Assembly (NCBI GenBank): GCA_041394985.1
Contig: JAWLBI010000001.1
Coordinates: 2,198,882-2,262,881, forward strand
Direction: 5' to 3'
DNA from: Candidatus Zixiibacteriota bacterium
Lineage (GTDB): Bacteria > Zixibacteria > MSB-5A5 > GN15 > JAAZOE01
DNA length: 64,000 nucleotides
Part shown: positions 15,334 to 51,375 of the stretch, piece after piece
How positions within the stretch are numbered: position 1 is the first letter of the stretch
Layout of the letters: each line of letters begins with the position of its first letter
Notes under the pieces: generated by a model
Told to the model about the DNA's origin: nothing
The model's database searches: none
Seen by the model: the letters and a program-made list of their open reading frames with translations, nothing else
Program-made: the position numbers and the translations under genes

Positions 15334-15349
15334 TGGCAGTCTATTTGCT
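15334..15349 (+). promoter_or_regulatory. sigma54 (-24/-12) promoter upstream of the sugar transferase
   Basis: TGGCAG-tctat-TTGCT with exact GG-N10-GC spacing, 73 nt upstream of the ATG at 15422. Two sigma54 activators are encoded in the window. Confidence 0.55.
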
Positions 15350-15421: not shown

Positions 15422-16327
15422 ATGATTTCCAATTCGTTAAGTGCGCGAACTGTGAAAGTGGCAATTAACGGCACGAACATTCGGCAGCAGTATCAGGCAA
15501 AGACTTCTCATCAACATACCGCGGCGACGCGGCGTTTTGCGATGCCGAGTCCGGGTTATATCTTTGGCGAGTATATCTGGGGTACGATGGTCCTCGTCCT
15601 CAGCGTCGTCAGCCGTATGGCCAACTCGATTAACGTGTCAATGCCGCTTAAGGGAATCGACAACAGCTTCGTCAAACGGTGTATTGATATTTTCGGTGCT
15701 CTGGTCGGTTTGACGCTGACAGCGCCGTTATTTTTGATTCTGCCGATTCTGATTAAGCTCGATTCACCCGGCCCGGTTTTCTACAAACAGCTGCGTACCG
15801 GACACAATCGCCGTCGTGGTCAGCGCCGTGTTTCCGGTGTCTCCGACCTCGGCCGCTGCAACCGTGATCGCCGTCGCCAGAATCTGCACGGCCGCCCGTT
15901 CGAAGTCATTAAATTCCGAACGATGGTTGCCGACGCCGAGAAGAAATGCGGAGCCGTCTGGGCCACCAAGAATGACCCGCGAATCACGACGCTGGGACAT
16001 ATCATGCGCAAGACTCGCATGGATGAAATCCCGCAGTTCTTAAACATTCTTATCGGCGATATGTCGCTGGTAGGTCCTCGCCCGGAACGTCCGGTGTTTG
16101 TCGAAGAACTGTCCGAGAAGGTAGAAAACTACAAGAAACGCCTCGATGTCAAGCCGGGCCTCACCGGTCTTGCACAGGTCGAAAACGGCTATGACTCCTC
16201 GATCGCCTCGGTCGTCAAGAAGGTCCAGTATGACCTGCAGTACATCCGGAACTGGAGCGTTTGGCAGGATGTGAAAATCATGCTCAAAACGGTTGTGGTC
16301 GTCGTCACGGGTAAGGGTGCCTTCTAA
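15422..16327 (+). CDS. polyprenyl-phosphate sugar transferase (bacterial sugar transferase family, EpsB/WbaP C-terminal type)
   Basis: 301 aa. KRCIDIFGAL...LDSPGPVFYKQ, KFRTM, DEIPQFLNIL.GDMSLVGPRP and the C-terminal region are typical of the family. It contains an Arg-rich insert. Confidence 0.85.
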   Translation: MISNSLSARTVKVAINGTNIRQQYQAKTSHQHTAATRRFAMPSPGYIFGEYIWGTMVLVLSVVSRMANSINVSMPLKGIDNSFVKRCIDIFGALVGLTLTAPLFLILPILIKLDSPGPVFYKQLRTGHNRRRGQRRVSGVSDLGRCNRDRRRQNLHGRPFEVIKFRTMVADAEKKCGAVWATKNDPRITTLGHIMRKTRMDEIPQFLNILIGDMSLVGPRPERPVFVEELSEKVENYKKRLDVKPGLTGLAQVENGYDSSIASVVKKVQYDLQYIRNWSVWQDVKIMLKTVVVVVTGKGAF

Positions 16328-23264: not shown

Positions 23265-24698
23265 ATGAAAAAAGTACTCCTTGTAGACGACGATGTTGAA
23301 CTGTCACAGTCACTTATGAACTTATTTGACCCGGACAAATACAGTTTTCATCATCTCGCAGACGGTCAGGATACTGCTCGATATGTCGAAGACAATCGAG
23401 AGGATCTCGATCTTATCATGCTTGACGTCAACTTACCTTCCTGTTCCGGACTGGATGTCCTTAAGAATATAAAAGATATCAGTAAGGAAACGCCGGTGAT
23501 CGTTATCTCCGGTTTCGTTTCCACTGAGAACGCCATGGAGGCGATGCGCGAAGGTGCCTATGAATATTTGACCAAGCCGTTCGAATTGAGCAAGCTGATC
23601 GACATCGTCAATAAGGCCTGCGGATACTCGCATGAAGCGACGAGAAAAGCGATCGAAAAGCCGACTCATGATGAAGAAGCCATGGCTGACGAAATCATCG
23701 GTCAGTCACCGGAAATCGTGGAGATCGCCAAGCTCATCGGCCAGGTTGCCAAAACCGATGCTTCGGTGCTCATCTTCGGCGAGTCGGGTACCGGTAAGGA
23801 ACTCGTCGCCCGCGCGATTCATCGCAACAGCCTCCGCAGAAACAACATGATTCTGTCGGTCAACTGCGCGGCTCTGTCCGACACGCTCCTTGAGTCCGAA
23901 TTATTCGGTCACGAAAAAGGCGCCTTTACCGGAGCCTATTTCAAACGAATCGGTAAATTCGAGCAGTGCGACAAGGGCACGATATTCCTCGATGAAGTCG
24001 GCGATATGTCCATGCTGACGCAGGGGAAAGTCCTGCGCGTATTGCAGGAAAAGCAGTTCGAGCGCCTGGGCGGCAACGACCCGATTAATGTCGATGTTCG
24101 CGTCATCGCCGCGACGAATAAGTCGCTGGTGCAGTCGATGAAGGACGGCTCGTTCCGAGTCGACCTGTTCTATCGTCTTAAGGTTGTCTCGATTTACATC
24201 CCGCCGCTGCGGGAACGCAAAGAAGATATTCCTCTTCTGATAGATCATTTCATTCAGCGTTATAATAATACGCTCAGCAAGAACATCCGCGGCGTATCCA
24301 AAAAAGCCAAGGCGCACCTGACGAAGTACATCTGGCCGGGCAATGTCCGTGAACTGGAGAATAATATCCACACGGCCATGGTGATGTCCAAGAATGATAC
24401 CCTCGATGTCGAGGACTTCCCGGTGTGCAACGAAGACGCCAATACGGTGGAAATCGACCTCGAAGGATTGCAGGACAATTATACCGAGATGTTCAGCCGA
24501 ATCATCGACCCGGTATTCCCGAAACTGGTCAGCAATTCCGAGGGGCGGATTTATCACCTGATGCAGTCTTCAATGGAGAAGGCACTCATCGCCGCCTGCC
24601 TGAAACATTTCAATTCGAATCAGGTCAAGGCGTCGGATATGCTGGGGATTTCCAGAAACACGCTGCGCGACAGGATTAGCAAATACGGCATTTACTAA
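23265..24698 (+). CDS. sigma54-dependent Fis-family response regulator (NtrC-like)
   Basis: 477 aa. REC domain (LDLIMLDVNLP), AAA+ domain (GESGTGKE, ESELFGHEKGAFTGA), and Fis-type HTH (ASDMLGISRNTLRDRISKYGI). Confidence 0.85.
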   Translation: MKKVLLVDDDVELSQSLMNLFDPDKYSFHHLADGQDTARYVEDNREDLDLIMLDVNLPSCSGLDVLKNIKDISKETPVIVISGFVSTENAMEAMREGAYEYLTKPFELSKLIDIVNKACGYSHEATRKAIEKPTHDEEAMADEIIGQSPEIVEIAKLIGQVAKTDASVLIFGESGTGKELVARAIHRNSLRRNNMILSVNCAALSDTLLESELFGHEKGAFTGAYFKRIGKFEQCDKGTIFLDEVGDMSMLTQGKVLRVLQEKQFERLGGNDPINVDVRVIAATNKSLVQSMKDGSFRVDLFYRLKVVSIYIPPLRERKEDIPLLIDHFIQRYNNTLSKNIRGVSKKAKAHLTKYIWPGNVRELENNIHTAMVMSKNDTLDVEDFPVCNEDANTVEIDLEGLQDNYTEMFSRIIDPVFPKLVSNSEGRIYHLMQSSMEKALIAACLKHFNSNQVKASDMLGISRNTLRDRISKYGIY

Positions 24699-24737: not shown

Positions 24738-24766
24738 TTGCGGCTCAGAATGTGACTGCGTATATT
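24738..24766 (+). promoter_or_regulatory. possible sigma70-type promoter giving a leaderless nurA transcript
   Basis: TTGCGG, a 17-nt spacer, then TATATT ending 5 nt before the ATG at 24772. There is no Shine-Dalgarno sequence in between. Confidence 0.3.
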
Positions 24767-24771
24767 TTTCC

Positions 24772-25842
24772 ATGCAGTCGGAAACCCGCGAATACAATGT
24801 CATAGATGATACCATCGTGCGCCGCACGGCCTCGGAGATTCAACTCCTGTTTCGGCCGGATGCGCCGCAGCCTGCCCTCTCAGGTACCGGGACGACGGAG
24901 AAAGCCCCTCCGCTGATTGATGATATTACATCAGTGCCGCCGGTGACAATACGCTCAATAGAATCAGATGCTGTCGTTTACGCAATCGACGGCGGCTCAT
25001 CGGTTATCGCCAAGGGCGGCAATGTCGAGGTTATCTGCTGGCGGGCCGGATATGTATGCTTCAAAGGCATTCACCGGGAGGGCGAATTCTGCGAGTCCCC
25101 AAACATCCTTGCCTATAACCGGCTTAACATAAACTCAATCATCAATGATTTTCTCGCGGGAACGGATTTCAAACGAGTAATGGATGAAACTCCACTCAGC
25201 CCCGTCAATGAATTGCGCTGGATGAGTGAATGGATGCTGTTGCGGCGATTAATCGATGAAGCGCCCGAAGGGTCACTAATCCTCATGGACGGCACTCTGC
25301 GGGCCAATCCGTTTTTCGATGTCAAGCCTCAGCATGACCTATTCAAAAAGGCGGCCCAAAACGGCATTCATATCGCATCCGTCACAAAGACAAGTTCGCT
25401 TTCATTGGACAAAGCTATCCCGATAGATATTATGGAGATCGGAGCGGATGAGCAAAGTAAAACATGGTATCGCCAGCTCAACATGTCATTGCCAAAGGAT
25501 TCCCCGTGGCTGGGCGATGTGTATCTGGCCGGACTGCATCCCGGCGCAGACAAACGATACCGTGTGGATATCAATCGCTATGACACCGAGGCGGTCGACA
25601 GGATTTTCTCGATACTGGTTTCGGTATCGGACGATACCGAATTCGCCGGATACCCATATCCTTTGGTAGCGGCGCATCGGCAGGCGCGAATCGATTTACT
25701 GTTCAAACAATCAATCATCGAGGCACTCGGTGAGGAATTGAACCGCCTTGACTTTTCCGATGGCTTGTGGCATTTTCTGACCGGTGATATTCACGATAAA
25801 CTCAACGCAGATGTTCTGGAGATAGCGGCGCATGAGCAGTAA
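24772..25842 (+). CDS. nurA: NurA-domain nuclease
   Basis: 356 aa. AIDGGS, ELRWMSEWMLL, ILMDGTL, SVTKTSSL and GYPYPLVAAHRQARI match the conserved NurA catalytic and structural motifs as I recall them. It overlaps herA by 11 nt. Confidence 0.65.
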   Translation: MQSETREYNVIDDTIVRRTASEIQLLFRPDAPQPALSGTGTTEKAPPLIDDITSVPPVTIRSIESDAVVYAIDGGSSVIAKGGNVEVICWRAGYVCFKGIHREGEFCESPNILAYNRLNINSIINDFLAGTDFKRVMDETPLSPVNELRWMSEWMLLRRLIDEAPEGSLILMDGTLRANPFFDVKPQHDLFKKAAQNGIHIASVTKTSSLSLDKAIPIDIMEIGADEQSKTWYRQLNMSLPKDSPWLGDVYLAGLHPGADKRYRVDINRYDTEAVDRIFSILVSVSDDTEFAGYPYPLVAAHRQARIDLLFKQSIIEALGEELNRLDFSDGLWHFLTGDIHDKLNADVLEIAAHEQ

Positions 25843-27394
25843 AATCATCGGGCGGCTGATAGGGAAATCGGTTGCGGAGTTATCATTCCGCTCATTCCGC
25901 GATAGCTATATCTCCATTGGGAGCATCGTTACGGTCAATGATGAATCGCGCGACCGGACATATTTGCTGCGAGTCATCGATGTCAGCTACGGGCACGAGA
26001 GCAGCGAGGCGAACTGGGCGGAAAAGGCGGCCGGGCGCATGATGGAAGAGGATACTCGCGGCAACGCATATCGCATCCATGACCCCGATCGGCGATTGTA
26101 TAAATTGGTCAAGTGTTCGCCGCTGGGATATGTTTCGAATAATGCCTTTCATCGACCACGCTCGATACCCGAACATTTCTCTCGAGTGCTGACTCCGGAC
26201 GAGGAAACAATGGCATTCCTCCGGGAGTACAGCGGCGATCTTATTGTCGGCCATCTTCGCTGCGGCGAGGATACGCTCAATATTCCTCTCGGCATCGACG
26301 GCACGACACTGTCACAGCATGTCGGTATTTTTGCCACGACCGGTATGGGCAAATCGAATTTGATGAAAGTCCTGGCGGCAGCAATCATGGAACACCCATC
26401 GTATGGATTGCTCATTTTCGACCCGCATGGCGAATATTTCGATGGTGGACAGGGAGGGAAGCGCAAAGGTCTGAAGCATCATCCCTTGGCTGAGAAAAGG
26501 CTCTTTACGCGCAGCTTGAGGAAACTTTCCGGCAATAAAGACACGCTGGCGATACCGCTCAAGGATATCGAAATCGAGGACATCACCCAGATTTTCGGAT
26601 TTTCTCAGGCACAATACGAAGCGCTCCAGGCGATTCGTATCAAATACGGCAAGGAATGGCTGATTAAGCTCATCTCGATCGATATCGAAACGCTCATCGA
26701 GGAACTCCGCGACAGCCGCCTGAATTTCCATGAATCGACCATGGCGGTACTTATTCGCCGAGCCAATCATCTGGCGGAATTCCGAACGGTCACCAAAGAC
26801 AATGACTATGCATCGGTCGGCGATATTGTCGCCAAGGTTCAAAGCGGCAAGGCAGTGTTGATTGATACCGCCAATTTATCTCAGGACGAGGATTTACTCG
26901 TGACATCGGTTATCACTCGCTCTGTACTCAAGAGCTACAAATACAAGTACCAACAGGCCGAAGGGGAATTCGACAAACTTTCGCCTTGTCTGATTATGCT
27001 CGAAGAGGCCCAACGTGTTCTCATGGCATCGGCGGGCGATACCAATATCTTCCACCGCGTCGTCAGGGAAGGCCGTAAATTCAAGGTCGGCCTTGGCGTT
27101 ATTACGCAGCAGCCGAAGCTGCTGTCCGAGGAGCTCCTTTCGCAGCTAAACTCTATGTTCATTCTCGGTCTTGCCGATGAGCGCGACCGCACGATTATGC
27201 GGTCATCATCCAAGCAGGACATTTCATCACTGGGAACCGAAATCCAAACCCTGGCTGCGGGCGAGGCCATATTGACATCTCCGACCGTGCCGTTTGCCCT
27301 GCCATTGAAGATATTCCTCTATGAGGACTACCTTGCACGATTGCCCAAGGATATTGCCAAACCGGCCGAACGACCGGCGGAGGGTTTCTTCTGA
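25832..27394 (+). CDS. herA: HerA-type (DUF87) hexameric ATPase/translocase
   Basis: 520 aa. Walker A is GIFATTGMGKSN and Walker B is CLIMLEEAQ. REGRKFKVGLGVITQQP is typical of HerA/FtsK-like ATPases. Confidence 0.8.
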   Translation: MSSKIIGRLIGKSVAELSFRSFRDSYISIGSIVTVNDESRDRTYLLRVIDVSYGHESSEANWAEKAAGRMMEEDTRGNAYRIHDPDRRLYKLVKCSPLGYVSNNAFHRPRSIPEHFSRVLTPDEETMAFLREYSGDLIVGHLRCGEDTLNIPLGIDGTTLSQHVGIFATTGMGKSNLMKVLAAAIMEHPSYGLLIFDPHGEYFDGGQGGKRKGLKHHPLAEKRLFTRSLRKLSGNKDTLAIPLKDIEIEDITQIFGFSQAQYEALQAIRIKYGKEWLIKLISIDIETLIEELRDSRLNFHESTMAVLIRRANHLAEFRTVTKDNDYASVGDIVAKVQSGKAVLIDTANLSQDEDLLVTSVITRSVLKSYKYKYQQAEGEFDKLSPCLIMLEEAQRVLMASAGDTNIFHRVVREGRKFKVGLGVITQQPKLLSEELLSQLNSMFILGLADERDRTIMRSSSKQDISSLGTEIQTLAAGEAILTSPTVPFALPLKIFLYEDYLARLPKDIAKPAERPAEGFF

Positions 27395-28503
27395 TGCGCT
27401 TCTGCCATTTCGCCGATAATCATCTTGGCGCCGGTTCAGGCGCTCGTGAGGATGATATCCTCCGGAGCTTCGCTGTTTCTATTGACCGGATAATTGACCT
27501 CAAACCCGATTTTGTCATCAATGCCGGTGATTTATTCCATGTGGTTCGTCCTACGAACCGGGTAATTGCATTTGCCTCGGAACAACTGCTTCGATTGGGC
27601 CGCGACGCGAAAATTCCAACGTTTATTATATCGGGCAATCACGATGCCCCAAAGCAGCGCAATATCGGGTCGGTACTATCGATTTTTAAAGATTTCGAAA
27701 ATATCTCTGTTATTTATAAATCACAATATGAGCGCCTGCGCTACGGAGACGTTTCTATCTCGGCCGTGCCGCACTGCCTGACAACCGATATCCTCCACGA
27801 GGAACTGGATAAAATAACGCCCGATCCGGACGCCGAGTTCAATATTCTTGTCCTGCACGGAGTCGTCGCCGGAATCAAAGAATTCCAGATGGCTGATTTG
27901 TCGGAGCAGGAAATATCATCGGAGTATTTTGAGCGGGGATTCGATTACGTCGCCCTTGGGCATTATCATAATTACACCAGGGTGGCGCCGAATACCTATT
28001 ATTCCGGATCGACCGACCGCCTCTCGATGTCCGAGGCGAATCATTCAAAAGGATTCGTCGAGGTCGATCTGGCCAATCCCGATTTGGACGGGCGGATTAC
28101 CTTCCACGAAATTCACACGAGGGAAATGGTTGATTTGCCGGCAGTAAAGGCGAAAGGGCGCTCGGTCGAGGACATAATGTCCGAACTGGAAGGCAAAATC
28201 GCCCAAAGACAGCCCGAAGATAAGATCATCCGCCTGAAAATAACCGACATCCCGGAGGAAACCTACCGGGCGCTCCCGTTCACGAAAATCGCCGAATTGA
28301 AAAACGGGTCATTTTCCCTCGATATCAAATTCGAGAAAGAGGAAAAACCGGAAGAAAACCTGTATGCCGATATCAACCTGGGGCGTCTGGATATCGCGTT
28401 CGAGAAATTCATGGAAAAAAAGACCGTGGAAGACCTCGATAAAAAGCGGATTTTCTCTATGGCGCTTGATCTGTTCAACCGGGTTGAAGGGGACGAGGCA
28501 TAA
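27394..28503 (+). CDS. mre11: Mre11/SbcD-type metallophosphoesterase nuclease
   Basis: 369 aa. Phosphoesterase motifs are FADNHLG, NAGDLFH, SGNHD, VLHG and GHYH. The start overlaps the herA stop (TGATG). Confidence 0.8.
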   Translation: MRFCHFADNHLGAGSGAREDDILRSFAVSIDRIIDLKPDFVINAGDLFHVVRPTNRVIAFASEQLLRLGRDAKIPTFIISGNHDAPKQRNIGSVLSIFKDFENISVIYKSQYERLRYGDVSISAVPHCLTTDILHEELDKITPDPDAEFNILVLHGVVAGIKEFQMADLSEQEISSEYFERGFDYVALGHYHNYTRVAPNTYYSGSTDRLSMSEANHSKGFVEVDLANPDLDGRITFHEIHTREMVDLPAVKAKGRSVEDIMSELEGKIAQRQPEDKIIRLKITDIPEETYRALPFTKIAELKNGSFSLDIKFEKEEKPEENLYADINLGRLDIAFEKFMEKKTVEDLDKKRIFSMALDLFNRVEGDEA

Positions 28504-28625: not shown

Positions 28626-29393
28626 ATGCAGACATTTGTTTCTGCCGACAAACGCCGAATGTACGGCGATCTATCCTGGACATGGCCGATTATCAGCCCG
28701 CCCGAGGACTATAAAGAAGAGACCCAGGAATATATCCGGCTCATTAAGGACCAGTCCCGAATCCCGGTCAAGAAACTCCTCAATATGGGCTGCGGGGGCG
28801 GCCACAATGACCATACCCTGGCGACTGCTTTCGAAGTGACCGGCGTTGATCTGAGTCAGGAAATGCTGACCCTCGCCAAGGAGCTCAATCCGCATGTTTC
28901 CTATATCAACGGGGATATGAGGGCGATTCGACTGGGGCAGGGATTCGATGCCGTGACCGTTTTCGATTCCATTTCATATATGCGGACGCCTGAGAGCCTC
29001 AAAGCGGCCTTTTTGACGGCGTATACGCACCTGAGACCGGGTGGCGTGTTTATTACTTGTATCGAGGAGACGGCGGAGAACTTCGAGCAGAATAAAACGA
29101 TCGCTACGACAAGAAAAAAAGATGATATCGAGATAACTCTCGTAGAAAATTACTATGATCCCGATCCAAAGGACAATATGTACGAGGCGAACTTCGTATA
29201 TTTTATACGCCGGTCGGGACAACTGACTATAGAGACCGATTGCCATTTGCTGGGATTATTCCCGTTTCATGTCTGGGTGGAAGTAATGGAGTCGGTCGGG
29301 CTGGAAGTATTTAAGCGGGAATCATTAATGCAAACGGTAAACGGAAAACCGCTGCAAATACTTATCGGTGTTAAACCGGTTACCCACGAGTAA
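28626..29393 (+). CDS. class I SAM-dependent methyltransferase (small-molecule/sugar N-methyltransferase-like)
   Basis: The ATG at 28626 is preferred. Motif I is LLNMGCGGGH, followed by VTGVDLS, with a TylM1-like N-terminal region (YGDLSWTW...DYKEETQEY). Confidence 0.7.
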   Translation: MQTFVSADKRRMYGDLSWTWPIISPPEDYKEETQEYIRLIKDQSRIPVKKLLNMGCGGGHNDHTLATAFEVTGVDLSQEMLTLAKELNPHVSYINGDMRAIRLGQGFDAVTVFDSISYMRTPESLKAAFLTAYTHLRPGGVFITCIEETAENFEQNKTIATTRKKDDIEITLVENYYDPDPKDNMYEANFVYFIRRSGQLTIETDCHLLGLFPFHVWVEVMESVGLEVFKRESLMQTVNGKPLQILIGVKPVTHE

Positions 29394-29575
29394 GAATGGA
29401 AACACGCAATACAGGACTGAAAACTCTATTGTACAAATCCTAATTCTCGTGCCGAATAACGCACAATAACCGCGGAAAAAAAGTAGTTTTTGATATTAAT
29501 ATATGCGGTTTAGATGTGTATGAACCGATATCTAAGAAGTATCGTCAGCACTGCTAGTATTTTAAGAGGAAATAC

Positions 29576-31450
29576 ATGTACGGAATCCTGGTGGGATTAG
29601 GCCGGCCGGCCGGTTTGGTCAGTCATCAGCTTATCTCTCGATTATGGCCTACGAGCGAGAAGTTCGTCGTCCATAATCCCGGCCCGAACATCTCGATGGC
29701 GATTTTGACGCCGAAGGGTGACAATCCGGAAGATTACTGCGCAATATCTCCCGACAGTCGCTTTTTGCTCGGTTTGAACGGGTATATTCTCGCCGATTCC
29801 AACGTGTCCGGACAGGCAAGACACCTCCAGCTCCTGGCCGAATCTTTCCAAAAAGGAGATTTCGCCAAGGGACTGGAAGGCCTGGTTGCCGGAAGCTTCA
29901 ATCTGGCCGTTATCGATACATCCCGCATGAAAATTCGGGTATATTCCGACCCTGCCGGTTCGGTACCGCTCTACTATAGTCAAGTCGAAGGCGGAGTTTT
30001 GCTGTCCAACAACCCGGTTGCACTGATTAAAACCGGATTGGTTGATACGGCGCCCGATATAACCGCCTGTGCCGAATGGGCGCTGTTTTCCCATACCATC
30101 GGGGATAAATATCCGATAAAAGCGATCCGTACACTTCGCGTCGGTGAGTTTTACGAGTGGAATGGTGATGGCAGCCGCATTATGTCATATGATCGTTTGT
30201 GGGATCGGTTGCCTACCGTTAAGGCTCCCGAGTTATCCGATATTGCCGATGAATTCAAGGCGGCCTGCGGTCGTATTCGACTGATAGATGACAACCCGGC
30301 CCAGTTACAGAGCGCCGGGATGGATTCTCGCCTCATTGCTGCCGCCTGGCCGGATGAAAAACGATTACGAAGTTATTCCTATGGCAATCCCGACTCACAC
30401 GAGATTATCATTGCCAAACAGATCGCAATGACGCGTGGCGCCTCCTGGACACACACCTGGCAGCACGGTGATCTCGTTGCCGACAAACTGCAGGATATGT
30501 ATGACAACACCGGAATGATTATCTGGCCCGATCGCTTTTTTGTCGCCGAGAAAATGGCTGCCGAAGGGCATCGCGGGACACTCGATGGATTGGCCGGCGA
30601 TGCGCTGTTGGGTGGCTCCGATTATATACATAATAGATATCTCGGAAAGAATAAGCAGCTCAATCGCTGGCTGTGTCGCTTCGAGGATTACGATATCAAA
30701 GATGTAGGGCTTGATTTTCTAACGGAAATCATGTATGACAAACACCTGCAGATTCCATCGGCAGATTATCTGCGCCCTTATGTGAGCGATGAGTATATTC
30801 AGCAACTAAATAATGCCATTGATGATATTAAGGCTTCCATACATGCCGAGATGGAATACCTGATGCCTCCCAATAATTCCGTCGCCCTGCTCTGGCGGAA
30901 TTTCATCTATGCAAATCGGGCGCCTCATATGACCATCCACCAGGGACTCATGTGTAATCGGTTCGTACAAGTATATTACCCGTTTATCAGCGATTTCCGG
31001 TTTCATGATATGGCATTCCGCCTGCGGCCGGAAGACACGGCTTATCGGCGGCTATATCGCAAGCTGTATTGTAATTGTTTCCCGGAATTCGCGAATATAC
31101 CATATGGCGCATCGCTATTGCCTTTGACTCGCCCGAACTGGAACCACAAACTGGCCGCCATGATGGCCTCGAAGCACAAATCAATACCCTGGCTGACTGC
31201 GCCGACCAACGGTCGGCCGCGAGATCCTAACGGGTGGGCGATTTGGATGAAGGAGAGCGCCAAGATGCGCGATTTCGTATCGACGGCCCTCGCAGAGGGC
31301 GGTATTATTGATCGCCAACGGTGCGATACATTTATGCAGGATGTCGCGGAAGGACGGGCGCAGGCAGGCGGAAAGATATTCCATGTTGCCAGTCTGGCCA
31401 AATGGCATTCATTTTCCAATGTCAATAAAATCTCACCAGTCATACAATAA
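29576..31450 (+). CDS. asparagine-synthase-family adenylating enzyme lacking the N-terminal Cys nucleophile
   Basis: 624 aa with RBS aagagga. The N-terminus is MYGI instead of MCGI. A PP-loop-like SAGMDSRLIAA lies in the C-terminal synthetase domain. Confidence 0.65.
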   Translation: MYGILVGLGRPAGLVSHQLISRLWPTSEKFVVHNPGPNISMAILTPKGDNPEDYCAISPDSRFLLGLNGYILADSNVSGQARHLQLLAESFQKGDFAKGLEGLVAGSFNLAVIDTSRMKIRVYSDPAGSVPLYYSQVEGGVLLSNNPVALIKTGLVDTAPDITACAEWALFSHTIGDKYPIKAIRTLRVGEFYEWNGDGSRIMSYDRLWDRLPTVKAPELSDIADEFKAACGRIRLIDDNPAQLQSAGMDSRLIAAAWPDEKRLRSYSYGNPDSHEIIIAKQIAMTRGASWTHTWQHGDLVADKLQDMYDNTGMIIWPDRFFVAEKMAAEGHRGTLDGLAGDALLGGSDYIHNRYLGKNKQLNRWLCRFEDYDIKDVGLDFLTEIMYDKHLQIPSADYLRPYVSDEYIQQLNNAIDDIKASIHAEMEYLMPPNNSVALLWRNFIYANRAPHMTIHQGLMCNRFVQVYYPFISDFRFHDMAFRLRPEDTAYRRLYRKLYCNCFPEFANIPYGASLLPLTRPNWNHKLAAMMASKHKSIPWLTAPTNGRPRDPNGWAIWMKESAKMRDFVSTALAEGGIIDRQRCDTFMQDVAEGRAQAGGKIFHVASLAKWHSFSNVNKISPVIQ

Positions 31451-31558
31451 TTTCCATAAACTATCAAATACAATTAAATCGATAGCGTATAACAGGTGCC
31501 ATCTGCCGGACATCTTATTCGGCGAACTTCTATCACGGACAAACAAGGCAGGGATGAT

Positions 31559-33058
31559 ATGATTTCACAGGATGATATCATTTATTTCGTGCTCACCGAT
31601 CGATTCAAAAACGGCGAGGCCGCCAACGATGCCGGAGTCGATGTCTCCCGGGACAAGGCATTTCACGGCGGCGATTTCGCGGGGCTGATCGAAAAGATTC
31701 CATATTTCCAGACGCTCGGCGTGACGACTATTTGGATTACGCCGGTATATGTCAATATTACCGACTTCTTCGGTTCGGCCGGATATCATGGCTATTGGCC
31801 GATTGACTTCGAACTCGTCGACGGGCATTTATACAGCGCGAAGGAGCGGCGTAAAAAAGGCAGCAAGGCGTATCTGAAAGATCTCGTCACGGCTTTTCAC
31901 GCCAAAGGTCTCAAGCTCATTCTCGATATGGTCGTCAACCACACCGGGTACCATACACCTGAGTATAATGCCTATCCCGATAAGCGATTCGATGATTCTC
32001 ATTTCAATGCGCCGAATCAATGGGATGATGTCAATCAATGGCTCTATGGTTTGCCCGATCTCGATCACGACAATCCCGATGTCGGGGATTATTTCGTGCA
32101 GAATATCCTCGAATGGATTGCCGCCACCGGTATCGATGGAATACGCATGGATACCGTGCGCCATGTCGAGGATCGTTTCTGGTATTTGTTCAAGTCGCAG
32201 ATTAAGACGAAATATCCGAACCTGACGCTGCTCGGCGAAATCCTCGATTGGAATCCCGACTACATCGGCCAATTCCAACAGAAACATGATTTCGATACCG
32301 TATTCGATTTCCCGCTGTGCGGCGCGATCAAGGCGTGTCTGATTTATGATGCGCCGATGACATCGCTGGCCAGACCGCGCCTGCATGATGCCGAGCCGCA
32401 GGGGATGCTCGATCGCAATAAAGAATATTCGAATGCAAACCGCCTCGTCACTCTGCTCGACAATCATGACCTCAGCAGCCGCATTATGACGGAGATTTTG
32501 GACCGTGTCGGGCATTGGGATCGAGAACTGGCTAAGGCAATACTCAAGACCTGCCTGACAATTATATTTACGACGCGGGGAATTCCGCAGGTGTATTACG
32601 GAACGGAAATCGGTATGGAAGGCGGGGGAGATCCCGACAATCGCCGCGATATGCCCTGGGATGTTTTCGGAGCCGATAACAGGCCGACACCGACCAATAC
32701 CTTTCAGCGCGATATATTTGATCATGCGGCGGCGCTGTGCAAAATCCGAAGCGGTAACCCGGCCATTCGAACCGGATACTTATTGACCTTGTATGTCGAT
32801 ACATTCGTGTATGTATACTTGCGGGAGTTTCAGGGGAATATCGTCATTGTAGCCATCAATAATGGGCACGAGGCGATGCCGTTTCCATTGCCGGTGAAAG
32901 TCACCGAGAACGGCAATATCCCATCGCGTATCAAATCGCTTCTTGCCGATGGTACAAGGCTGGAGAGTAAACTTCCCGGCAGCCTCGACATCACGATGCA
33001 GGGTGGAAAATTCGAAATACAACTGGGCCGCAAATCGGCCGGAGTATGGTGCAAATAA
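31559..33058 (+). CDS. GH13 alpha-amylase-family glycosidase
   Basis: Conserved regions I-IV are DMVVNHTG, GIRMDTVRH, LGEIL and LLDNHD. The start at the ATG 31559 (MISQDDIIYFVLTDRF) is preferred. Confidence 0.85.
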   Translation: MISQDDIIYFVLTDRFKNGEAANDAGVDVSRDKAFHGGDFAGLIEKIPYFQTLGVTTIWITPVYVNITDFFGSAGYHGYWPIDFELVDGHLYSAKERRKKGSKAYLKDLVTAFHAKGLKLILDMVVNHTGYHTPEYNAYPDKRFDDSHFNAPNQWDDVNQWLYGLPDLDHDNPDVGDYFVQNILEWIAATGIDGIRMDTVRHVEDRFWYLFKSQIKTKYPNLTLLGEILDWNPDYIGQFQQKHDFDTVFDFPLCGAIKACLIYDAPMTSLARPRLHDAEPQGMLDRNKEYSNANRLVTLLDNHDLSSRIMTEILDRVGHWDRELAKAILKTCLTIIFTTRGIPQVYYGTEIGMEGGGDPDNRRDMPWDVFGADNRPTPTNTFQRDIFDHAAALCKIRSGNPAIRTGYLLTLYVDTFVYVYLREFQGNIVIVAINNGHEAMPFPLPVKVTENGNIPSRIKSLLADGTRLESKLPGSLDITMQGGKFEIQLGRKSAGVWCK

Positions 33059-50529: not shown

Positions 50530-51375
50530 ATGTGCGAAAAAGAGAATCAAAAACTGCCCAAATATCTCTATAAATATATAGATTGGGAAAAACTATATCA
50601 TAGAAGGATGTTAGCCGATAGAGAATTCTTCTTTGCAAAACCAAGTTCGTTTAATGATCCCTTTGATTGTTTGTTAGAACCTGATTATTCTCTCCTTAAT
50701 AAAGCACAAATATATAAAATTTATATAAGCCATTTAAAGAGAGATTTACCAATGGCCAATAGGAGTGAGATACGAAAAAGAGCGAAAGATTGGCAAAAAA
50801 AAGGGCTCTGGAAAAACGAAGCGAATAAGAAGCGATCTGAAGAGTGGTCATATAACTATAAAAATGAGAATCTGGGATTATTCTGTCTATCATCAAAACA
50901 TGATGAAATTTTGATGTGGTCTCATTATGCAAAAGGGCATTCTGGTTTATGTTTACAATTCGATACAAAAAGGTTGATGGATGATTTTGAAAATCAGCTA
51001 ATAGTTGAGGGAAAACTCTTTGAAATAATTCCTATTGAATATCACCTTGACATGCCAATAATAAATCCATCGGAGGAAGGAGATGATTATTTTAAAAGAC
51101 TGGTTACAATAAAAGCAAAGAGATGGGAATATGAAAACGAATATAGAATTGTCCTATTGGGTTTTAAAGATAATGATAAGTTTTTAGAAAATAACGAAAG
51201 AATATATAAATATCCATCAAAGGCAATAACAGGCGTCTATTTTGGTTATAATACTACTATAGAGACTGAACAGAGCATCATGGCAATACTGCGAGAAGGA
51301 AGAATCCAACCTTACTTTTTTAAGTCAAAAGTAAAAAAGAATAAATTTGAATTAGAGTTTATACAAATTAATTAA
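50530..51375 (+). CDS. DUF2971 family protein
   Basis: 281 aa. FFAKPSSFNDPFDC and MWSHYAKGHSGLCLQFD match the conserved DUF2971 motifs as I recall them. The gene is visibly much more AT-rich than its neighbours. Confidence 0.6.
   Translation: MCEKENQKLPKYLYKYIDWEKLYHRRMLADREFFFAKPSSFNDPFDCLLEPDYSLLNKAQIYKIYISHLKRDLPMANRSEIRKRAKDWQKKGLWKNEANKKRSEEWSYNYKNENLGLFCLSSKHDEILMWSHYAKGHSGLCLQFDTKRLMDDFENQLIVEGKLFEIIPIEYHLDMPIINPSEEGDDYFKRLVTIKAKRWEYENEYRIVLLGFKDNDKFLENNERIYKYPSKAITGVYFGYNTTIETEQSIMAILREGRIQPYFFKSKVKKNKFELEFIQIN

Follow-up and report, generated by a model that had tools for sequence, protein, structure and literature searches.

An intact nurA-herA-mre11 operon for DNA-end processing is a real constituent of a Zixibacteria chromosome and is, at a probability of roughly two in three, best explained as a whole as a derivative of a four-gene nurA-herA-mre11-rad50 operon from whose locus rad50 has been lost. 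The operon lies on the analyzed 64-kb stretch (in the following, the window) of a 4.46-Mb contig, and all searches of the organism's own genome refer to this window. From its sequence, three forward-strand open reading frames (ORFs) can be deduced which encode a NurA-family 5'-3' nuclease, a HerA/FtsK-class hexameric translocase ATPase and an archaeal-type Mre11/SbcD nuclease. The nurA and herA frames overlap by 11 nucleotides (nt; 25832-25842) and the herA stop and mre11 start codons are joined in a TGATG at 27394, in line with a preliminary description of the locus, which had deduced translational coupling of the three genes from these overlaps. The identical arrangement is present in independent assemblies, namely the NCBI metagenome-assembled genome (MAG), the Logan assembly SRR28338172 and several further MAGs, so the locus is not an assembly artefact.

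For tracing the origin of this arrangement, one genome per species was scanned with a HerA alignment, resulting in 80 loci from Zixibacteria, Ignavibacteria, many Actinomycetota, one Proteobacteria MAG and Thermoplasmatota archaea, with HerA proteins being 44-70% identical. Architectures were counted for these 80 loci together with three from the clade that were retrieved through their proteins. Both in the window and, with few exceptions, across the 80 loci, nurA directly precedes herA, and the order nurA-herA-mre11 recurs across the survey. With mre11 following herA, rad50 is present in 40 loci and absent from six that provide enough downstream sequence to judge, whereas in nine others the downstream sequence is too short for this decision. 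A further 17 loci consist of nurA-herA only, mre11 and rad50 being jointly missing within 4 kb downstream, and 11 are too short to be judged at all. Hence, as rad50 directly follows mre11 in 40 of the 46 judgeable loci, the ancestral unit is, as read from gene order, nurA-herA-mre11-rad50. These 40 loci span Actinomycetota, Zixibacteria, Ignavibacteria, the Proteobacteria MAG and Thermoplasmatota, and their rad50 ORFs of about 760-800 amino acids (aa) bear an N-terminal Walker A motif, the Pfam domains SMC_N and SbcC_Walker_B and a central CxxC zinc hook. Because rad50 is this common in homologous loci, the Rad50-less state represents a lineage-specific loss from the operon. The distinct, self-contained three-part machine envisaged in the preliminary description is accordingly not borne out, and the local loss that it had named as the alternative is what the regular presence of rad50 in homologous loci points to.

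Complete nurA-herA-mre11-rad50 clusters with a zinc-hook Rad50 (within L007-L080, e.g., L020:8420-15089, L019:8811-14971 and L070:9932-15235) include 28 loci from Actinomycetota. The archaeal-type four-gene cluster is thus widespread in uncultured mesophilic bacteria, especially Actinomycetota, a breadth that was unexpected; in the literature accessible to us, bacterial herA-nurA is discussed only for Deinococcus-Thermus. Besides, some of the Rad50-linked Zixibacteria and Ignavibacteria loci possess an extra ORF of 160-195 aa between nurA and herA or between herA and mre11 (L020:9494-9988, L006:9121-9708, L007:11709-12284).

The six Rad50-less loci (L002, L005, L082, L083, L085 and L024) have one chromosomal slot in common, in which the operon is preceded by genes for an fn3 protein, a membrane protein, a histidine kinase and two response regulators (RR1 and RR2) and followed by those for an SNF transporter, BacA, a glycosyltransferase of family 9 (GT9) and a radical SAM (S-adenosylmethionine) protein. 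In trees of HerA and Mre11, the window's group of five loci is monophyletic with 100% bootstrap support, whereas L024 groups with Rad50-linked loci (76%), indicating that rad50 left the operon once or twice. Searching with the Mre11 of the window retrieved about 48 clusters at ≥55% identity, then a gap and then, at ≤49%, the Rad50-linked group, whereas only about 20 clusters were obtained with HerA at the corresponding level. When eight clade members outside the known trio set were looked up, all eight turned out to carry mre11 alone in the same slot. In these loci (L087-L094), neither nurA nor herA nor rad50 was found, and tblastn did not detect remnants of any of the three. The solo loci make up at least three well-supported separate groups with trio loci branching between them, and one solo locus nests in a 91%-supported group containing trio contigs. 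As judged from this topology, the simplest reading is that nurA-herA was deleted repeatedly and mre11 always retained. The presence of solo mre11 in the same slot of sister lineages means that the trio is not an obligate unit, which the preliminary description had named as a finding that would speak against its idea. The locus is consequently less exotic than had been proposed, as it stands midway in a reductive series ending with mre11 alone. This natural series in one conserved slot comprises four genes, three without rad50 and finally mre11, the latter being under strong selection throughout. In one of the solo loci, the spacer between RR2 and mre11 has grown to 963 nt (L093:7038-8000) and contains a twice-repeated element of about 37 nt (GGGGCACCCATACTCAGTAAATTGGTTAGGTGAATGT) as well as several GC-rich segments resembling hairpins; these may represent miniature mobile elements.

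The identities assigned to the three proteins in the preliminary description are right, as established by Pfam scores and matches to solved structures, and each of the motifs it had quoted is present in the translations. For the 356-aa NurA, the Pfam profile (PF09376) gives 28 bits at a cut-off of 21 and covers positions 2-254 of 254. In addition to the NurA motifs AIDGGS, ILMDGTL, SVTKTSSL and GYPYPLVAAH, alignment of 20 homologues reveals invariant residues D73 (within AIDGGS), E153, D173 (within MDGT), K206, D288, the GYPYPL motif, H302 and H341, with D73, E153, D173, D288, H302 and H341 as the acidic and histidine residues expected of an RNase H-like/PIN-like active site. The profile of these homologues matches NurA from S. 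solfataricus (2YGK, E 5.8e-11) in three collinear segments, with D73, D173 and GYPYPL..H lining up with the SsoNurA motifs. A single-sequence AlphaFold2 (AF2) model of NurA reached a pLDDT (predicted local distance difference test) of only 35. The 520-aa HerA is recognized by DUF87 (PF01935) at 108 bits and contains the motifs ATTGMGKSN, LIMLEEAQ and REGRKFKVGLGVITQQP; in 20 homologues, GMGKS (Walker A), EEAQ (Walker B) and REGRKFK do not vary, and the protein combines the profile match with both Walker motifs and an arginine finger. Its best NCBIfam match is HerA_Thermprot, the HerA of double-strand-break repair, at a score below the equivalog cut-off, and its best solved relative is HerA from S. 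solfataricus (4D2I, E 6.6e-37, 131 bits).

The 369-aa Mre11 matches Pfam Metallophos with 48 bits and NCBIfam Mre11_Sulfo over its full length with 96 bits, the latter value being below the equivalog cut-off. Its translation shows the motifs DNH, GDLFH, GNHD, LHG and GHYH, and the five phosphoesterase motifs (D8/H10, D46/H49-position, N82/H83, H155, H190/H192) are invariant or nearly so among 47 homologues. Profile searches retrieved Mre11 from M. jannaschii (3AUZ/3AV0, E 2e-33) and P. furiosus, with E values of about 1e-33 to 1e-27. With bacterial SbcCD, the protein shares the phosphoesterase nuclease, the capping domain and a predicted C-terminal helix-loop-helix (HLH), and its NCBI annotation is 'exonuclease SbcCD subunit D'. 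However, its match to archaeal Mre11 (119 bits) is far stronger than that to E. coli SbcD (51-56 bits), and an adjacent sbcC is missing. The AF2 model (pLDDT 86.8) predicts nuclease and capping domains and has MjMre11, PfMre11, TmMre11 and SbcD as top Foldseek matches (E down to 5.8e-21), the best PDB match being 3AV0_A, the MjMre11 chain of an Mre11-Rad50 complex, aligned over the full length. Beyond a low-confidence flexible linker (residues 316-328), helices are predicted for residues 329-342 and 350-366. Position and shape of this modeled HLH suggest that it corresponds to the Rad50-binding domain of characterized Mre11 proteins. L332 and F336 of its first helix are invariant in the 47 Mre11 sequences, whether Rad50-linked, trio or solo, and G330 and L361 are conserved to at least 90% across the same three classes. 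Measured against the nuclease domain, conservation of the HLH amounts to 0.70 for the Rad50-less clade and 0.72 for the Rad50-linked group, and the ratio of nonsynonymous to synonymous divergence (omega) is about 0.12 for the Mre11 C-terminus. As solo loci without HerA also keep the HLH, its conservation is not due to contact with a HerA encoded in cis. At 27430-27435 of the window (Mre11 A13-G14), the protein shows a deletion of about 10 residues in the loop after phosphoesterase motif I. This loop reads GAGSGARE in all Mre11 proteins of the Rad50-less clade, versus GAGGFGNKLSKNGINQRE in L024 and the Rad50-linked relatives, where the deletion is missing.

In view of the progressive gene loss seen at this locus among the relatives, the three genes might be regarded as decaying, non-functional leftovers of the four-gene operon or even as an artefact. 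Selection analysis has effectively refuted this explanation. Synonymous sites have reached saturation in the Rad50-less clade, with synonymous divergence (dS) exceeding 1.8 or not being computable even for the closest pair examined. Nonsynonymous divergence (dN) amounts to 0.10-0.30 for HerA and Mre11 and to 0.34-0.75 for NurA, and omega, where computable, is about 0.06-0.13 for HerA and Mre11. These values mark HerA and Mre11 as being under strong purifying selection, as estimated from codon substitutions, and saturated dS combined with low dN indicates that the genes are functional and have long been maintained without an adjacent rad50. Moreover, none of the three ORFs is disrupted, their catalytic residues are invariant, and the recurrence in independent assemblies and samples speaks against an artefact.

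The absence of rad50 in cis, already stated in the preliminary description, is clearly confirmed: Pfam scans of large ORFs did not reveal any SMC-like protein in the 64-kb window, a Rad50 hidden Markov model (HMM) built from 34 related loci did not match any of its six frames, and Rad50/SbcC is likewise not encoded within 8-10 kb in 14 clade loci. Nevertheless, the retained and unrelaxed HLH with its invariant L332 and F336 argues for a partner encoded elsewhere, most plausibly an ATPase of the Rad50/SbcC type. Mre11 hence probably still works with such an ATPase from elsewhere in the genome, which would make the locus a case of ordinary operon rearrangement.

Several points weigh against this interpretation. 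The profile of the last 85 Mre11 residues did not give any significant match among PDB sequences, so that the Rad50-binding label of the HLH rests on its position, its predicted shape and orthology with Rad50-linked Mre11 proteins. A profile of five Zixibacteria and Ignavibacteria Rad50s was run against the protein database for finding a partner in trans, and the best 120 matches, none of which is on the window's contig or on other clade contigs, are all close relatives of the query (≥971 bits). This result is uninformative rather than supportive, since both a bacterial SbcC and an orthologue that had diverged would come after the matches listed. Further, mre11 and rad50 normally stay together, and rad50 having moved away alone is unusual in itself. 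In the sequences compared, the motif-I loop deletion coincides with the absence of rad50, which runs counter to a partner in trans. Finally, recent work questions the role of archaeal HerA-NurA in resection (PMC12977600).

Some of these observations would be accounted for if the system were truly Rad50-independent. In this case, Rad50/SbcC would be missing from the genome, and Mre11 would act alone or be recruited directly by HerA, with motor and second nuclease being provided by HerA-NurA and the HLH being co-opted for a different partner. This is rather unlikely in our estimation. It is favored by rad50 being absent in cis across the whole clade of about 48 Mre11 clusters, in which mre11 is under purifying selection, by the clade-wide motif-I deletion not found in Rad50-linked relatives and by the fact that mre11 and rad50 otherwise travel together, both being missing in the 17 loci with nurA-herA only, so that their separation is exceptional. 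In S. acidocaldarius, Mre11 co-precipitates with both Rad50 and HerA (PMC2288612), and for Halobacterium NRC-1 a Rad50-independent repair function of Mre11 has been reported, as cited in PMC12977600. However, solo-mre11 lineages without HerA still keep the HLH with L332 and F336, the constraint on this domain has not been relaxed after the loss of rad50, the trio is not obligate and the evidence from this genome spans 64 kb. It is a doubtful proposition that the Zixibacteria lineage is devoid of any Rad50/SbcC and that its Mre11 is a naturally Rad50-independent end-processing nuclease, re-using the HLH for a different partner. Equally doubtful is the corollary of an Mre11 that is alone in many genomes and accompanied by an optional HerA-NurA motor-nuclease in others. 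If true, a ready system would be at hand for Mre11 without Rad50 and for whether HerA-NurA can stand in. To our knowledge, Mre11 is regarded as inseparable from Rad50 in every domain of life.

Under the favored explanation of a rad50-less derivative whose Mre11 has its partner encoded elsewhere, the three genes would be transcribed from their own sigma70-like promoter abutting the nurA start and translated as a coupled unit. By analogy to the mechanism described for archaeal and Deinococcus systems (PMC3326311, PMC9960219), a HerA hexamer might bind a NurA dimer through its N-terminal barrel and, driven by ATP, feed duplex DNA into the NurA active sites, resulting in processive degradation from ends. 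The Mre11 dimer, likewise by analogy, might contribute Mn-dependent 3'-5' exonuclease and endonuclease activities for opening blocked, hairpin or structured ends, with its conserved HLH, of the kind clamping the Rad50 coiled coil, engaging the Rad50/SbcC-type ATPase supplied from elsewhere. NurA-HerA represents an accessory, dispensable addition to mre11 in this lineage, and a physical hand-over between Mre11 and HerA is plausible from their co-precipitation in Sulfolobus.

As for the physiological role, the stable position in the core genome and the absence of any defence-specific component tend to favor recombinational repair over degradation of foreign DNA. The preliminary description had also considered an antiphage or anti-plasmid module in which HerA-NurA together with Mre11 destroys invading linear DNA. 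Indeed, nurA-herA is patchy among close relatives, as is typical of accessory or defence genes, PADLOC models of HerA match part of the protein and HerA-family hexameric ATPases are combined with nucleases in the Sir2-HerA, DUF4297-HerA and TdpAB antiphage systems, with TdpB being weakly matched by the NurA profile (E 0.008). Moreover, both DNA strands are degraded by HerA-NurA from T. kodakarensis, which has been proposed to act in defence (PMC12977600, PMC3326311), with degradation of foreign DNA by the Thermococcus proteins having recently been argued (PMC12977600). Nevertheless, such a function is very improbable for the present locus. On the cassette, PADLOC found nothing for NurA, partial generic matches for HerA and generic domain matches for Mre11, limited to the N-terminal phosphoesterase, and for the methyltransferase encoded downstream. 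The HerA protein is closer to the repair-type 4D2I (131 bits) than to HerAs associated with Sir2, DUF4297 or Tdp (54-69 bits). In contrast to the HerA-scaffolded antiphage systems, Mre11 is present in the window, and an effector specific to any of the HerA-based systems, MADS included, is missing next to HerA, with Pfam not revealing a Sir2 or DUF4297 domain. In addition, the operon has long been fixed in a conserved housekeeping neighborhood with dnaK, dnaJ, genes for acyl-CoA carboxylase subunits, undecaprenyl-diphosphatase and glycosyl hydrolases, and an exopolysaccharide (EPS)-like sugar-transferase cluster. The site is neither a defence island nor a mobile element, and the defence reading remains without support.

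Compared with characterized systems, the window encodes the same three families as the archaeal mre11-rad50-herA-nurA operon of Sulfolobus, Pyrococcus and Thermococcus, to which the closest solved relatives (2YGK, 4D2I, 3AUZ/3AV0) belong, and its similarly tight operonic organization might by analogy give rise to a HerA6-NurA2 translocase-nuclease plus an Mre11 dimer. However, three of the four genes of this end-resection operon are clustered here, rad50 being missing, the genes are arranged as nurA-herA-mre11 in an uncultured mesophilic Zixibacteria bacterium, and nurA-herA is dispensable in sister lineages. The four-gene clusters (L007-L080) from uncultured Actinomycetota, Zixibacteria, Ignavibacteria and Thermoplasmatota are orthologous and of the same order (HerA 44-50%, Mre11 35-48% identical), and some of those from Zixibacteria also lie near kinase and sigma54-regulator genes, but in contrast to the window's lineage they carry the zinc-hook Rad50 of about 800 aa directly after mre11. 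In Deinococcus radiodurans and Thermus thermophilus, bacterial NurA-HerA is likewise of archaeal origin, operonic and implicated in recombination, yet these pairs are two-gene units to which no mre11 is linked, the N-terminal region of DrNurA is extended, and the window proteins are nearer to the archaeal ones than to those from Deinococcus and Thermus.

Upstream of nurA, the sequence separating RR2 from the operon is poorly conserved, with TTGC(G/C)N and TATATTT at a spacing of 17 nt as the exception. When the otherwise divergent regions from seven loci were aligned, TTGC and TAT..TT proved invariant. In every trio locus, 5 nt separate the end of the -10-like box from the nurA ATG, and the same footprint precedes mre11 in solo-mre11 loci. 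This conservation supports a candidate sigma70-type promoter, and the distance of 5 nt to the ATG implies a leaderless or near-leaderless transcript, making the earlier idea of a leaderless mRNA plausible. The footprint scores below the threshold of a generic promoter scan and was thus missed; generic promoter and terminator scans were not enriched over shuffled sequences, and a convincing terminator was not found after mre11 (z -0.28).

As previously noted and corroborated by Pfam, the cassette adjoins two sigma54 activators, and the synteny of histidine kinase and both sigma54 response regulators upstream of the operon is kept in all clade loci. A sigma54 GG-N10-GC element was not found upstream of nurA, and the window-wide count of such sites is not above chance. 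The neighborhood of these regulators is therefore conserved synteny and not demonstrably operon control. A sigma54-like -24/-12 element (TGGCAGTCTATTTGC) is located at 15334-15348, i.e., 74 nt upstream of a sugar-transferase gene starting at 15422, which heads the cluster whose last genes encode the kinase and both sigma54 regulators. From this position of the element, the regulators may serve the EPS-like operon rather than nurA.

Positions of the cassette, its flanking features and the solo mre11 genes of sister lineages (window coordinates unless preceded by a locus identifier).
Feature	Position	Strand	Characteristics
nurA	24772..25842	+	356 aa, predicted NurA-family 5'-3' nuclease
herA	25832..27394	+	520 aa, predicted HerA/FtsK-class hexameric translocase ATPase
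mre11	27394..28503	+	369 aa, predicted archaeal-type Mre11/SbcD nuclease
Mre11 C-terminal HLH	28378..28491	+	residues 329-366; from AF2 and conservation
Putative sigma70-like promoter footprint	24738..24766	+	-35-like TTGCGG (24738-24743), 17-nt spacer, -10-like TATATT (24761-24766)
Second sigma54-dependent response regulator (RR2)	23265..24698	+	Pfam Response_reg, Sigma54_activat, HTH_8
Class I SAM methyltransferase	28626..29393	+	Pfam Methyltransf_25/11; NCBIfam daptide-MTase-like
AsnB-like amidotransferase homologue	29576-31450
Glycoside hydrolase family 13 (GH13) alpha-amylase	31559-33058
Solo mre11	L087:4623-5747
Solo mre11	L088:884-1993
Solo mre11	L089:10001-11104
Solo mre11	L090:2418-3581
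Solo mre11	L091:8001-9107
Solo mre11	L092:8001-9125
Solo mre11	L093:8001-9104
Solo mre11	L094:2333-3499

Downstream of mre11, the methyltransferase and the AsnB-like protein are encoded as had been described, again confirmed by Pfam. The methyltransferase gene occupies the position of rad50 in the relatives and is present in L082, L083, L085, L089, L090, L092 and L093 but absent from L002, L005, L087, L088 and L094. It was considered as a replacement for Rad50 or as a defence component and rejected in both roles, since the enzyme is of the small-molecule class I type and variably present in sister loci. The AsnB-like and amylase genes were found only in the window and in L082. All three are insertions that vary among loci and do not belong to the system, and the variability of the genes between mre11 and the SNF transporter (28626-33058) marks this segment as an insertion hot spot. 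Elsewhere in the window, an ORF with a DUF2971 domain (50530-51375) directly follows dnaJ in a stretch of low guanine-plus-cytosine (GC) content (0.40 at 50-52 kb versus about 0.50 elsewhere), which may be a small foreign insertion.

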